A stretch of 64,000 nucleotides of DNA from an uncultured archaeon (GCA_964525635.1 CAZGJX010000005.1:1-64000); one strand, 5' to 3'; positions 4,101 through 10,737 are shown, counted from the first letter of the stretch. Notes: generated from the letters alone by a model not told the origin. Program-made: numbers and translations.

Positions 4101-5329
4101 ACATCTCTTATTGTGATTATTACTTTTGCAGCTCTCTCTTGTTCTCCTAATAATTCTGAAGTTAATGTATAGTTTGTATAGAGCCAATTCATATCTGCCA
4201 AAGCTATACCATAATTATAAATTCTAATATCATCAATAAATCCATTGAAATTTGGATATGGACCCATATAAGCAGTATCATCATAACCTATGAAAGGAGT
4301 TGATAGACTTGGTTTATTTAAAATGTTTGGATTTGCTGTAGTAACACGTTCACCATCAATATAAATATATTGGATATTTCCATTCCATTCTGCTACAACT
4401 ACTACCTGATGCCAATTATTTAATAGATTAGGGATATTATAATAAATTCGGCAATCAGTATCGATACTATCTTCAAATTCCCATCCAATTTGCCCATTAT
4501 CCAATCGTATATAAAAATATTTATCTCCTAATGTCATATCATATAAAATACCCGATGTAGCTCGACTATTAAACCAAAGTGATATAGAAAAAGCTCCTGA
4601 ACTAGGAATTGGATCAGTGCCTATAGTTACATATTCAGTACTTCCATCAAAATCAAGACAATATTCTCCAATTTTTCCTGATTGCCAATTACTAGGCCCC
4701 ATATTAATTAAAGTTCCGTCATTATTTCCTATTAGATCTAAAGCAGTTACACCTTGACCATCTTCAAATCCCCACCACGCAATACCTTCTCGCTCTGGTC
4801 TATAATAAGTTGGATCTGGAGTTGCTACATCATTACCATAATATATATATGCATCATATTCAATAGAACTTGCATTAATAGTTGTTTCAAACCATACGTA
4901 TGCAAAATCTCCATCTGGACGTTCAGAGGAAAAATAGTAGTTTCTCAATATACCATTTTCTACTATCCTTACATCTCCTAAGTCTGATCTTATTTGATTT
5001 TTCTGTAGTAATTCTGTATGATTAATTTTTATTGAAACCATATAATCAATTAAATCAATATTATATGGATTGGTAATATTAATGCATTGACGATATTTCC
5101 AAGAGGCATGCCACCATGAATCTTCACCATATTGACTCATTTTTAGCATGATTGGATCAATATTATTACCATCTTCATCTATATTTTCTGATGAATCTAT
5201 ATAAGAAGAATAAAGAAAATTTAGTGTGGTTGATGATAAAATAAAAAATAGAAATATTATCTTAATAGATTTTTTAGATAGTTTTGGTATCTTATAAGTC
5301 TTGTTTGCATAAAATTCTCGTTTTTTCAT
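1178..5329 (-). CDS. Single-pass surface receptor/adhesin-like glycoprotein (DUF2341-like + LamG/ConA head, Ig-like stalk, C-terminal TM and cytoplasmic tail), copy 1
   Basis: Hydrophobic N-terminal signal/anchor; WWHASWKYRQ...YIYYGN (DUF2341-like); WWGFEDG...GKIGEYCLDFDG...FSISLWF...WHQV...FNGFIDDIRIYN (LamG); many N-x-S/T sequons; TM FPLFYFLMILIGVGAVVGSLVGY followed by a basic tail. Confidence 0.8.
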   Translation of the reverse strand: MKKREFYANKTYKIPKLSKKSIKIIFLFFILSSTTLNFLYSSYIDSSENIDEDGNNIDPIMLKMSQYGEDSWWHASWKYRQCINITNPYNIDLIDYMVSIKINHTELLQKNQIRSDLGDVRIVENGILRNYYFSSERPDGDFAYVWFETTINASSIEYDAYIYYGNDVATPDPTYYRPEREGIAWWGFEDGQGVTALDLIGNNDGTLINMGPSNWQSGKIGEYCLDFDGSTEYVTIGTDPIPSSGAFSISLWFNSRATSGILYDMTLGDKYFYIRLDNGQIGWEFEDSIDTDCRIYYNIPNLLNNWHQVVVVAEWNGNIQYIYIDGERVTTANPNILNKPSLSTPFIGYDDTAYMGPYPNFNGFIDDIRIYNYGIALADMNWLYTNYTLTSELLGEQERAAKVIITIRDVDGRPVPNAEVSLVNNTAPLANRTIITLDTSDMGIVNFENIPFGEYNVTVNYTLKQGGIVYEDLLYDSAELVNGALNFFGLFCNETIYVDIWSIDFEVDDWEEDPMDYGYVLVYNNSNSDPLLANLTLGTGTGINTFRWLNRSHYYYEMYYYNEDYLVKKNFLDSATIYRESKLNSTTFFVNETAELSGGSVYRSIVNIYAENSSASNIGKNKIIAIDINIELEKIINHLVSLDVQYLASDNTWKIVEEGSKIYGTSDTSDTIHLNIIDKYEAYGIKSIVNFFNSTPSNGIITINYNETTQVYEKAQMSKLRIYTFDKSSENQPIQYMIVKVVNSTGHNIVNLVTDSNGLAKGYNNDLPFWYFHGDYNFSLSFYGSNKSFLVSQSDKYFDPAKEYYDLDPYNYTLDGLAILNFNVTINIEDYQSRFQDTVGISEINWGEMMYFEVNYTIKTPILDWTPIQNPTYVRYEIYKLGTSIVVRSGDMAPGDNGNYSLQLNSDVLIGSEWYKMRIFGRKIGYIDPYDVNFDFRVIGVNTGILLHDYNTKDIIISNRTSEYFTQSINITLSYFVAGETSNRISEAILTYNIPGIPGESGIINEDPLSMGYYTFLFDTAIVTNVGQYLIEITANKDNYTKIDDYEIILDIDPIPTALNGTSRVKIIDDIPVLSEKFYIFEYYDTINDARITDCETKYYEWNKLDEDGNFLYGPGNEGVDFLIETVDDLYILDFDTETREIATYSIAVYFEKQNYLIKFADLTITIVPRPIDDDLIRFPSRQLNIKQGVKVVIQLNIVDKITALPLTDVNVTLTIKGYNTISATYMGGGIYELIFSTSGIDTFFTPKSLSAEIIIEKENYEIKSWVFNIVVGMTEIFPGFPLFYFLMILIGVGAVVGSLVGYRSIQVARIPEFIKKSRKIKKEIKSGKSISDSNLYPPKEHFLADLLGDKWKKLGLSLEDILGTKGKKTKKYKNENETGGVK
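1440..4150. repeat. Direct repeat (stalk + TM region), copy 1; partner at about 6920-9630
   Basis: Constant 5480-bp offset at every point checked. Tracts that look identical by eye: 2409-2785 = 7889-8265 and 3147-3412 = 8627-8892. Confidence 0.9.
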
Positions 5330-5494
5330 GATTTAACATCATATAATAGCTAAATTAATATATTTTTATTTAAATAAATAAAGATTAATAGATTCTAAAC
5401 TATATTTAAAAATTAATTAATTTAATACTAATTCAAGTATTAAAATTTTTACATAATAATTATATCAGATTTATGGTCTTAAGTAATAATAGAC

Positions 5495-9600: not shown

Positions 9601-10737
9601 TACTGATGCGGCTCTTTCTTGTTCTCCCATAAGGGAGATATTTAAATTATAATTATGATATAGCCAATATAATTCTCGCCAAGATAAATCATAATTAAAA
9701 AATCTAAGATCATCTATATTTCCAGAAAATGCTTGATTTGCATCGAAACCTCCTCCTAGAGAATCCTGTTCTTGGGCTATTATTAAACCTCCAGGAGCAA
9801 TATCAATAGGATCATCAGGATTACCATTAGGATAACTCCAAATAAGGCTATCATCTAAATGTAAATCTCTATAAATATGACCACCACTTGCATTCCTAAG
9901 CCATACATAAAAGTGCCATCCAATTTGAGTTGGAGAAGCCATTATCATATCATTATGATCTGATCCATCAGATCCTGAGATTATATATTCACCAGATTGT
10001 CCCTCTGTTGCCCAAAAGCAGATTGTAAATTCACTTGAACCATATAAAACAGTATTTGGTACATTAATGTAAGCACTTGTCTGTGTGTTAGCAAAATCTA
10101 AAGCCCAATCCCCCCTATAACCTGTAGTATATTGTACATTAGCTCCAACAGAAGCAATTGAGCCATCATTTTTTCCAAATAAATCTCTTGCAGTACTAGA
10201 TCCTGGATGCTCAAAATCATACCATGCCATTCCAAAACGATCCTCATCAAAGTAAGTGCTTTCACGAGTTGCTGTTGGATTTCCATAATACATATAAGTA
10301 TTATAATTAGATGAATCAGCTCCAACATTCGATTCAAACCAAACTCTTGCTATATCTCCTTCTATAGTATAATAATACTTTATAAAGGTACCATTTTGGA
10401 TAATTCTTAGATCATCTAAATCTGCTTGTGCTTTATTAGTACTTGTTATATTTGTATGATTAAATTCAAACATGATACCATAGTTATTGAGATTATCATC
10501 ATACTTATTAGTAATATTTATACTTTGTCGATATTTCCATGAAACATCCCACCATGGGTCTTCTCCGATTCCCTGGCTTAATTTGATAAGATCAGAATTC
10601 TCTTGTTCGTTATATAATTTAAGGTCCTCATTATTTACAGAATTTATTGTAATAGTCGAAAATATCGGTGTAATAATAAAAATAATTAGTAATAATACTA
10701 ATTTTATTATTCTTTCTTTCTTTAATAATAAATTCAT
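6646..10737 (-). CDS. Single-pass surface receptor/adhesin-like glycoprotein with pentraxin-like LamG head, copy 2
   Basis: Same layout as 1178..5329. The head contains GGLIIAQEQDSLGGGFDANQAFSG, matching the pentraxin Ca-binding loop. TM FPLFYFLMIIIGVGAVAGAIAGY. Confidence 0.8.
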   Translation of the reverse strand: MNLLLKKERIIKLVLLLIIFIITPIFSTITINSVNNEDLKLYNEQENSDLIKLSQGIGEDPWWDVSWKYRQSINITNKYDDNLNNYGIMFEFNHTNITSTNKAQADLDDLRIIQNGTFIKYYYTIEGDIARVWFESNVGADSSNYNTYMYYGNPTATRESTYFDEDRFGMAWYDFEHPGSSTARDLFGKNDGSIASVGANVQYTTGYRGDWALDFANTQTSAYINVPNTVLYGSSEFTICFWATEGQSGEYIISGSDGSDHNDMIMASPTQIGWHFYVWLRNASGGHIYRDLHLDDSLIWSYPNGNPDDPIDIAPGGLIIAQEQDSLGGGFDANQAFSGNIDDLRFFNYDLSWRELYWLYHNYNLNISLMGEQERAASVRIVVRDIDGRPVPNAEVSLVNNTAPIANRTIVTFNASDIGVVNFEDIPFGEYNVTVNYTLNQGGMIYENVLYDSAELEDATLNFFGLFCNETIYVDIWSIDFEVDDWEGDPMDYGYVLVYNNSNSDPLLANLTLGTGTGINTFRWLNRSQYYYELYYYNKDYLTKQNLLESDTIYRESKLNSTTFFVNQTAELSGGSVYRSSVNIYAENSSTSDIGKSKIIAVDINIELEEIITHLVSLDVQYLASDNTWKIVEEGSKIYGTSDTSDTIHLNIIDKYEAYGIKSIVNFFNSTPSNGIITINYNETTQVYEKAQMSKLRIYTFDKSSENQPIQYMIVKVVNSTGYNIANLVTDSYGEAKGYYNDVPFWYFHGDYNFSLSFYGSNKSFLVSQSDKYYDPGKEYYDLDPYNYTLDSTSVLKFNVTINIEDYQSRFQDTLGISEVNWGDMMYFEVNYTIKTPILDWTPIQNPTYVRYEIYKLGTSIVVRSGDMAPGDNGNYSLQLNSDVLIGSEWYKMRIFGRKIGYIDPYDVNFDFRVIGVNTGILLHDYNTKDIIISNRTSEYFTQSINITLSYFVAGEPSNRISGATLTYNIAGLSGVSGLIDEEPSSTGYYTFLFDTLIVSNVGQYLIEITADKDNYTKIDDYEIILDIEPIPTTLNGESRVKIIDDVPVLSEQNYTFEYYDTINDARITDCETKYYEWNKLDDEGNFLHGVGNEGVGFLIETVDDLYTLDFDTETRETATYSIAVYLEKSNYLIKFADLTITIVPRPIDDDLIGFPSRQLNLKQGVNVVIQLNIVDKITALPLTDVNVTLTIIGYNPVIATYMGGGIYQLVFSTNGIDTFFTPKSLSAEIIIEKENYETKNWVFNIVVGMTEIFPGFPLFYFLMIIIGVGAVAGAIAGYRFIQLAKIPEFVKKAKSMKKEIKGRNTISEKNLYPVKEEFIAKKYGDDWNVLGLSLKDILGVSQKKGKKLPDTINKTDENGGVD
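6920..9630. repeat. Direct repeat (stalk + TM region), copy 2
   Basis: Nucleotide match to about 1440-4150 at a 5480-bp offset. Confidence 0.9.

Follow-up and report, generated by a model that had tools for sequence, protein, structure and literature searches.

Two neighbouring genes at the start of a 64,000-nucleotide stretch of DNA from an uncultured archaeon (GCA_964525635.1, CAZGJX010000005.1:1-64000; hereafter the window) encode large predicted surface receptors, A and B, that are mosaics: their heads, stalks and tails differ in age, the trees of the separate parts conflict, and the breakpoints between the parts can be placed. The first 11 kb of the window are the start of contig C5 in a 245-contig genome (G000) and hold two tandem minus-strand cassettes, each made up of a receptor gene and a gene for a partner protein (pA or pB). 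Close relatives of the receptors have been deposited in the protein database under the name 'Candidatus Lokiarchaeota archaeon'. The array recurs in three congeneric genomes (G001-G003), where it again neighbours genes for the methyltransferase, the Rag-like GTPase and the ThiI-like protein, and the flanks are collinear with those of G002; we refer to the two slots of the array as c2 (upstream) and c1 (downstream).

We consider it likely that the ectodomains of an old two-slot array were rebuilt by recombination at three joints, together with gene conversion between the stalks. Judged from the sequence comparisons below, B, in the c2 slot, appears to combine a c1 ectodomain with a c2 tail, and A to be a c1 gene with an internal foreign head cassette. 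The features concerned, with lengths in amino acids (aa) or nucleotides (nt), are:

81-1178, minus strand: partner pA, 365 aa, predicted cytoplasmic, with a longin domain plus two winged helices; the start of pA and the stop of A share one base
1178-5329, minus strand: receptor A, 1383 aa, with a signal/anchor, DUF2341, LamG head, Ig-like stalk with predicted glycosylation, one transmembrane (TM) helix and a cytoplasmic tail of ~83 aa
1181-1432, minus strand: cytoplasmic tail of A, c1-type (aa ~1300-1383)
1460-4102, minus strand: stalk of A, c1-type, homogenised segment (aa ~410-1290)
2409-2785, minus strand: 377-nt tract in A, 100% identical to 7889-8265 in B
3147-3412, minus strand: 266-nt tract in A, 100% identical to 8627-8892 in B
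4100-5062, minus strand: putative foreign head cassette of A (aa ~90-410), comprising most of DUF2341 and the LamG domain (~4148-4774)
5069-5536, minus strand: c1-type upstream intergenic region (5330-5536), signal/anchor and joint 1 of A (aa 1-87)
5537-6646, minus strand: partner pB, c2-type, 369 aa
6646-10737, minus strand: receptor B, 1363 aa, occupying the c2 slot and adjoining the methyltransferase gene
6649-6912, minus strand: cytoplasmic tail of B, c2-type on a weak signal (aa ~1276-1363)
6940-9582, minus strand: stalk of B, c1-type, homogenised with that of A (aa ~386-1266)
9583-10605, minus strand: head of B, c1-type (aa ~45-385), with a LamG/pentraxin-like part at ~9628-10215
12347-13360, minus strand: Rag-like small GTPase gene, 337 aa, part of the context upstream of the array and syntenic in G002

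Divergence along the two receptors

Aligned with each other, A and B are ~30% identical over their first ~395 and ~370 residues, respectively, 89% identical in protein and 91.8% in DNA over a stalk of 878 ungapped residues (from GEQERAA to GMTEIFPGF), and drop to ~60% identity in the cytoplasmic tail. By the Nei-Gojobori method, synonymous divergence (dS) is 1.0-1.15 in the head, with non-synonymous divergence (dN) of 0.65-0.69; it is 0.19-0.20 in the stalk (dN 0.05, dN/dS ~0.28), 0.6-0.8 across the TM helix and tail, and 2.9 between pA and pB. Orthologous stalks and partners of G000 and G002 are separated by a dS of 1.1-1.5. A recent duplication of the whole cassette is ruled out, as pA and pB are orthologous to the partners of different slots and differ by the dS of 2.9.

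An earlier note, made from the sequence of the window, had described a sharp drop in similarity just N-terminal of GEQERAA. The step is real and is seen at synonymous sites too, but in the DNA it lies ~15 codons C-terminal of the GEQERAA start: around this motif the protein is conserved, yet 9-12 of the 30 nt differ in each 10-codon block, and the 5' edge of DNA similarity falls near A residue 410 (~4102 in A, ~9582 in B). At the 3' end similarity fades gradually, within the TM helix. The same note's picture of a near-identical, indel-free stalk of ~900 aa holds for the absence of gaps and the overall identity, but not for its evenness, with two tracts of 377 and 266 nt at 100% DNA identity and dS of ~0.1-0.55 in the remaining stalk windows. 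Chance does not account for the two tracts: when sites were permuted 20,000 times within codon positions, the longest identical run was never above 170 nt. Its coordinates for the LamG heads agree with Pfam, and the heads have diverged as it said, the LamG domains being 27-28% identical.

At synonymous sites the tract paralogues are thus closer to each other than to their orthologues, the flanking parts are older, identical runs are longer than chance produces, and trees of different segments are incongruent, the pattern by which gene conversion is recognised. The constant stalk is, on this pattern, a young product of gene conversion and not a fixed scaffold. That A and B could instead be old duplicates throughout, their stalk kept constant by stronger purifying selection, has next to nothing in its favour beyond the purifying value of the stalk dN/dS (~0.28): stalk dS falls as well (0.19 vs >1) and is zero over 643 nt, and between species the stalk is 59-72% identical by segment. 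It changes faster than the partner, with dN of 0.23 to G002 c1 (dS 1.11 for A and 1.16) against 0.09-0.10 for the partner. With this dS profile, purifying selection is ruled out as what keeps the stalk constant.

The organism has been assembled a second time, with both genes on a JGI contig of 29.7 kb (NCBI contig, 73.5 kb), and the two assemblies were compared at the level of proteins. JGI A differs at a single residue (917), where it has I like the orthologues and the A of the window has the M of B; JGI B differs at seven residues (643-685), all within the 266-nt tract, and at all seven the B of the window equals A. Every one of these eight differences falls inside the two identical tracts. 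Such a pattern could be that expected of very recent two-way conversion, and equally that of repeat mis-resolution in one of the assemblies; which way conversion ran is not shown by the JGI-specific residues of the 266-nt tract, and position 917 alone hints at B-to-A.

These differences also bear on whether the mosaic and its identical tracts were made by a short-read mis-join or collapse of two similar genes or strains, which we regard as very improbable. The genome is in 245 contigs, contig C5 starts 80 nt beyond the array, tracts of 266-377 nt exceed typical k-mers, and the JGI differences lie exactly within them. Nevertheless, two independent assemblies (NCBI and JGI) contain both genes, with one residue difference in A and seven in B; phase switching between 92%-identical stalks cannot give the pattern of heads, tails and partners or a low dS over 2.6 kb; and the same two-slot array is present in the sister genomes. 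Only 80 nt (window positions 1-80) lie between pA and the start of the contig, so the assembly breaks at the edge of the repeated array.

Ancestry of heads, stalks, tails and partners

Trees built separately from heads and stalks conflict. The LamG tree places A beside G017:C75, from another genus (support 100/99), and B in a clade with G024 and the c1 heads of B's own genus (100/100); on these data the approximately unbiased (AU) test rejects A and B as sisters (p = 2e-7) and A within the c1-head clade of the genus (p = 4e-7). In the stalk tree (835 columns), A and B are sisters (100) inside the c1 clade of the genus (100), and grouping A with G017 is rejected (AU, p = 1.7e-7, delta lnL 275). 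The exchange of heads as modules, proposed in the earlier note, is borne out by this conflict (AU p ~1e-7 both ways), and the congruence of head and stalk trees that would have spoken against it was not found, since A goes with G017 in one tree and with B in the other. More widely, stalks cluster by genus in four genera and heads cluster by type across genera, and P0170 carries an A-type LamG domain (50% identical to that of A) on a stalk that is just 20-25% identical. From these comparisons, head types appear to recombine with stalk types over long times.

The partners sort by slot. pA is 81-84% identical to the c1-slot partners of the sister genomes (clade support 99), and pB goes with the c2-slot partners of G002 and G003 (83-87% identity, clade support 99), its identity to the c1 partners and pA being 63-67%; the duplication of the cassette is therefore older than the genus. 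The tail of A is 70-76% identical to c1 tails of G001-G003 and 56-60% to the tails of B and c2 (DNA, 79% to G002 c1 and 64% to c2). For the B tail the values are 57-63% with c2 tails and 53-56% with the c1 tails and that of A (DNA, 73% to G002 c2 and 67-68% to A and c1). Both stalks are of c1 affinity (59-72% identical to c1 stalks by segment, 64-67% overall; 18-29% to c2 stalks). The LamG domain of B is 64-66% identical to c1 heads and 62% to that of G024, and the B head stands at an orthologue-like distance from the G002 c1 head (dS 0.89, dN 0.27). The LamG domain of A is 26-29% identical to c1 heads, its nearest relatives, 45-50% identical, being in another genus. Around this head, the upstream intergenic DNA and the first 60 codons of A align to those of G002 c1 (z = 5.4 and 4.2), with no such alignment to c2 (z = -1.6 and -0.7), and in sliding windows A is nearer to G017 and P0008 than to the c1 genes of its genus solely between aa ~80-100 and ~420.

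The mosaic could have arisen in a few steps. The c1 ectodomain, head and stalk together, would have been copied into the c2 slot to give B, with the c2 tail and c2 partner left in place. In the c1 gene, the head between joints 1 and 2 would have been replaced by another ancient head type to give A. Stalk-to-stalk gene conversion may still be going on, the divergent heads and tails bounding its tracts.

It is also conceivable, though we think it unlikely, that concerted evolution acted alone, so that A- and B-type receptors are ancient in these slots, the stalk alone was homogenised, and it was the sister genomes that changed. Both head types do predate the genera (A-type heads occur in G017, P0008 and P0169, B-type heads in G024, G011 and G008), the clustering of stalks by genus is what concerted evolution predicts, and the polarity of events is not resolved. 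Against it, the B head is orthologue-like to c1-slot heads (dS 0.89) even though it sits in the c2 slot with a c2 partner, A combines a head of non-c1 type with upstream DNA and a signal peptide of c1 type, and an A-type head was not found in G001-G003 (89-99% complete). Given the mismatch between head and slot in B and the c1 flanks around the non-c1 head in A, some lineage moved a head between slots or genes.

Several points weigh against the proposed rebuilding of a two-slot array. The c2 assignment of the B tail is weak, the tail tree (91 columns) being unresolved and the AU test giving p = 0.035 for A with B. The upstream region and signal peptide of B match neither c1 nor c2 (z = 1.1-2.9); homology is also lacking on the 5' side, so that a simple conversion from c1 into the c2 slot is not accounted for. 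A search for the donor of the A head returned best matches of 47-50% identity among 5.8 billion proteins, and G017 (51%) as the best match in 150 genomes of the order, which leaves vertical descent from a paralogue since lost and horizontal transfer as indistinguishable origins of this head. A single outgroup-like lineage does not polarise the change: either G000 or G001-G003 could be derived. Because the groups for the AU tests were named only once the trees were known, the p-values carry less weight, although the likelihood differences are no smaller for it. Finally, all sequences come from metagenome assemblies, and the identical tracts and inter-assembly differences could be artefacts of repeat resolution.

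The mosaic itself is new. Vertebrate clustered protocadherins are likewise tandem single-pass receptors in which conversion homogenises parts of the ectodomain within species and specificity domains remain distinct, and they form arrays of dozens of members that share a constant cytoplasmic region via splicing; in contrast, each receptor of the window has its own tail and its own partner gene, in an array of two or three members. Gene conversion of single domains between tandem paralogues has been described for the GAF-A domain transferred from TbrPDEB1 to TbrPDEB2 in Trypanosoma brucei (PMC2689650), for merozoite surface antigens of Plasmodium falciparum (PMC10919680) and for the Gal/GalNAc lectin genes of Entamoeba (PMC3125142). 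As these exchanges are reported, neighbouring paralogues swap a defined segment between old flanks, with discordant segment trees, as here; unlike those cases, the receptors of the window are from an Asgard archaeon and have a separate coupled partner, and it is the stalk that is converted, with head, tail and partner spared. In methanogens, long-lasting gene conversion between duplicated mtrA genes (PMC4632066) similarly keeps archaeal paralogues alike over part of their length, but the product is reportedly a cytoplasmic or membrane enzyme subunit and not a modular surface protein, and modules are not replaced. The window documents domain-level gene conversion in Asgard genomes, and its mosaic amounts to a natural domain-swap experiment in which the head, the stalk, and the tail with its partner evolve as separate units.

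Joints, related arrays and the extent of diversification

All three joints lie in stretches that are among the most conserved 20-mers of the family. Joint 1 (A aa 68-87, at the start of DUF2341) ranks fifth, joint 2 (aa 405-424, the head-stalk junction) second, and within joint 3 (aa 1270-1317) the juxtamembrane segment 1298-1317 ranks sixth and the TM helix 1270-1289 seventh. At joint 3, c1 and c2 genes are 74-78% identical in DNA, compared with 43-45% for their ectodomains; at joint 2, A and G017 are 83% identical in DNA, compared with 53-56% in the neighbouring segments; and at joints 1 and 2 the c2 genes are 36-58% identical in DNA to A, B and c1. This conservation suggests that the joints may serve as homology anchors for recombination.

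Typically, an array in this family has two or three cassettes. Neighbouring receptors were compared in 17 arrays of another genus and in G002 and G011, and 19 of the 22 pairs were 20-50% identical over their whole length, usually with the lowest value in the LamG bin and with no homogenisation, so stalk homogenisation is an occasional, recent event and not a fixed property of the family. In G011, from another genus (L033, G011:C32 4222-15233), the tails are 100% and the partners 99% identical, the stalks converge toward the C-terminus, and the heads are 15-26% identical. In G106 (L065, G106:C76 1220-15485), two receptors of ~1,900 aa are 62-72% identical solely in the C-terminal third of the ectodomain, with tails 42% and partners 63% identical. 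Heads are spared in all three homogenised cases (the window, G011 and G106). In genus g11, loci L055, L056, L057 and L064 have three cassettes in a row, encoding receptors of ~1,220, 1,460 and 1,290 aa and partners of 367, 370 and 371 aa.

The repertoire within the genome is small. A protein search of G000 found, besides A and B, only a gene on contig C133, a fragment on C24 and the LamG domains of a giant protein, at 28-39% identity, and there are ~three family members per genome. The C133 gene (G000:C133:2236-7053; L003 415-5232) encodes a third family member of 1605 aa, whose head falls in a separate well-supported clade with four other genera. Searching both cassettes against all 245 contigs by blastn revealed no silent copies of head or stalk. 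No strain combining this stalk with another head came up in a protein search, which returned only the two genes of the window, their JGI twins and orthologues at 65-66% identity; a scan of metagenomes, from which records very near this genome may have been excluded, yielded a relative of 40% identity at best. Between the NCBI and JGI assemblies the heads do not differ, but these assemblies are near-identical overall and so have little power to reveal head polymorphism.

A programmed origin of head diversity, from silent head cassettes in the style of pilE/pilS or vlsE or from a diversity-generating retroelement (DGR) aimed at the LamG head, seems to us improbable in the extreme. Lectin-type folds are known DGR targets, and the A LamG core (aa 261-340) is 7-31% identical to every relative. 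However, blastn of the whole genome detected no further DNA copy of head or stalk and no DGR-type template repeat of the head, a search of genome DNA that did not extend to reverse transcriptases. Members number ~three per genome, the heads are the same in two assemblies, and B-type heads are conserved across genera (62-66% in the LamG domain, 61-78% in sliding windows). The earlier note had gone on to propose a variable receptor repertoire like that of polymorphic adhesins or innate immune receptors. With no silent cassettes, ~three members and heads identical in a second, near-identical assembly, a strain-variable or immune-like repertoire is without support, while module exchange is supported.

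Predicted receptor and partner structure, and neighbouring genes

Each receptor has an N-terminal hydrophobic signal/anchor, a weak DUF2341 match, a LamG-type domain, a stalk whose first domain is of the CarboxypepD_reg/prealbumin type in both, one TM helix near residue 1280 and a tail of ~85 aa. In A, the sole strong hydrophobic 19-mer window begins at aa 1277-1285, and N-X-S/T sequons number 25 in the stalk and one in the tail; sequon density is 2.8-2.9 per 100 aa in the stalk and near zero in the tail and partners. The LamG domain of A matches Pfam Laminin_G_3 (PF13385) at aa 228-373 (E = 4e-16, 59.9 bits vs a cutoff of 27.6). That of B matches Pentaxin (PF00354) over profile positions 125-173 only (E = 6e-9, 36.3 bits vs a cutoff of 25), with a Laminin_G_3 match (E = 1e-5, 26.2 bits) slightly below the cutoff of 27.6. 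A structural model of A aa 45-470 is all-beta (mean predicted local distance difference test score, pLDDT, 84.5), and its LamG part is a ConA-like jelly roll, a match at the level of fold only; the best Foldseek matches are ConA-like jelly-roll subdomains and the carbohydrate-binding module 5fre_C (template modelling score TMt 0.61), with E ~1e-9 and probability 1.0. From this modelled fold, the heads may bind ligands. Each receptor is best explained as a single-pass, N-glycosylated surface protein with a lectin-like head, a beta-sandwich stalk of ~880 aa and a conserved tail, all as predicted.

At 4310-4549 (A aa 261-340), the core of the A LamG domain shows 7-31% identity to all relatives, other A-type heads included. 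The stretch matching it in B-type heads is 56-78% conserved across genera.

Nothing significant was found by Pfam in the partners. The partner model (pLDDT 81) has a beta-beta-alpha-beta-beta-beta-alpha order followed by two helix-plus-hairpin units. Its N-terminal ~120 residues match NPRL2/3, Lst4, VAMP7 and a Lokiarchaeal roadblock-longin protein (Z = 11-12.4 over 119-120 residues), with other longins within 1 Z unit of the NPRL2/3 match, and residues 124-201 match winged-helix repressors (Z = 9.3-10). For the full-length partner the top Foldseek matches are GATOR1 chains, at weak values (E = 2e-4, template modelling score ~0.23). On this model the partner would be a cytoplasmic, NPRL2/3-like protein in which a longin domain precedes two winged helices, and it is probably translationally coupled to its receptor. 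NPRL2-like longin families, including fusions to two-component domains, have been described in Asgard archaea (Liu et al., bioRxiv 10.1101/2020.10.19.343400); the passages of that preprint on NPRL2 and longin proteins do not mention coupling to LamG surface receptors, and the term 'LamG' does not occur in them. Like those longins and NPRL2/NPRL3 of GATOR1, the partner model has an N-terminal longin domain followed by winged helices, and a Rag-family GTPase gene is near; its full-length match to the GATOR1 chains is weak, however, and the likeness is one of modelled fold.

In seven metagenome proteins (P0018, P0019, P0020, P0023, P0024, P0025 and P0050), receptor and partner form one polypeptide, with a linker of 20-30 aa after the tail. 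The fused partner portion is 53-61% identical to pA, and these fusions are the best matches among partner-matching representatives. A physical link between tail and partner is supported, because the single-open-reading-frame fusions join the one to the other. The tail stays with its own partner here and in G106, and in G011 tail and partner moved together.

Taken with the mosaic, these observations argue for the head as a specificity module that would set the choice of ligand, for the stalk as a spacer free to homogenise, and for the tail and NPRL2/3-like partner as a cognate output pair, each tail presumably wired to its own partner and not parted from it by recombination; the in-frame fusions of other lineages fit this pairing. 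The Rag-like GTPase encoded 1.6 kb upstream of the array (Gtr1_RagA, E = 1.1e-23, 84 bits vs a cutoff of 22; Arf, E = 9e-16; 86% identical in G002) could be the target on which the longin partners act. The locus holds a candidate route for transmembrane signalling among the prokaryotes most closely related to eukaryotes, with the heads and tails of A and B as a ready comparison. A broader and decidedly tentative proposal is that Lokiarchaeia possess combinatorial receptors, with lectin-type heads shuffled at conserved joints and tails wired via an NPRL2/3-like adaptor to a Rag-like GTPase. If true, such a system would be a prokaryotic precursor of the signalling that leads in eukaryotes from modular, ligand-specific receptors to small GTPases, with recombination rewiring sensing and leaving the downstream channel untouched.

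Farther upstream on the minus strand follow a THUMP+ThiI-domain protein (13428-14654) and a calcineurin-like phosphoesterase (14680-16278), both collinear with G002. One open reading frame of ~12,721 aa spans 25821-63986 (minus strand) and contains LamG-like domains at ~49158-49868 and ~50685-51389 that are 28-33% identical to the receptor heads; comparable giant open reading frames (5,900-20,600 aa) with such LamG-like domains are found in related genomes.

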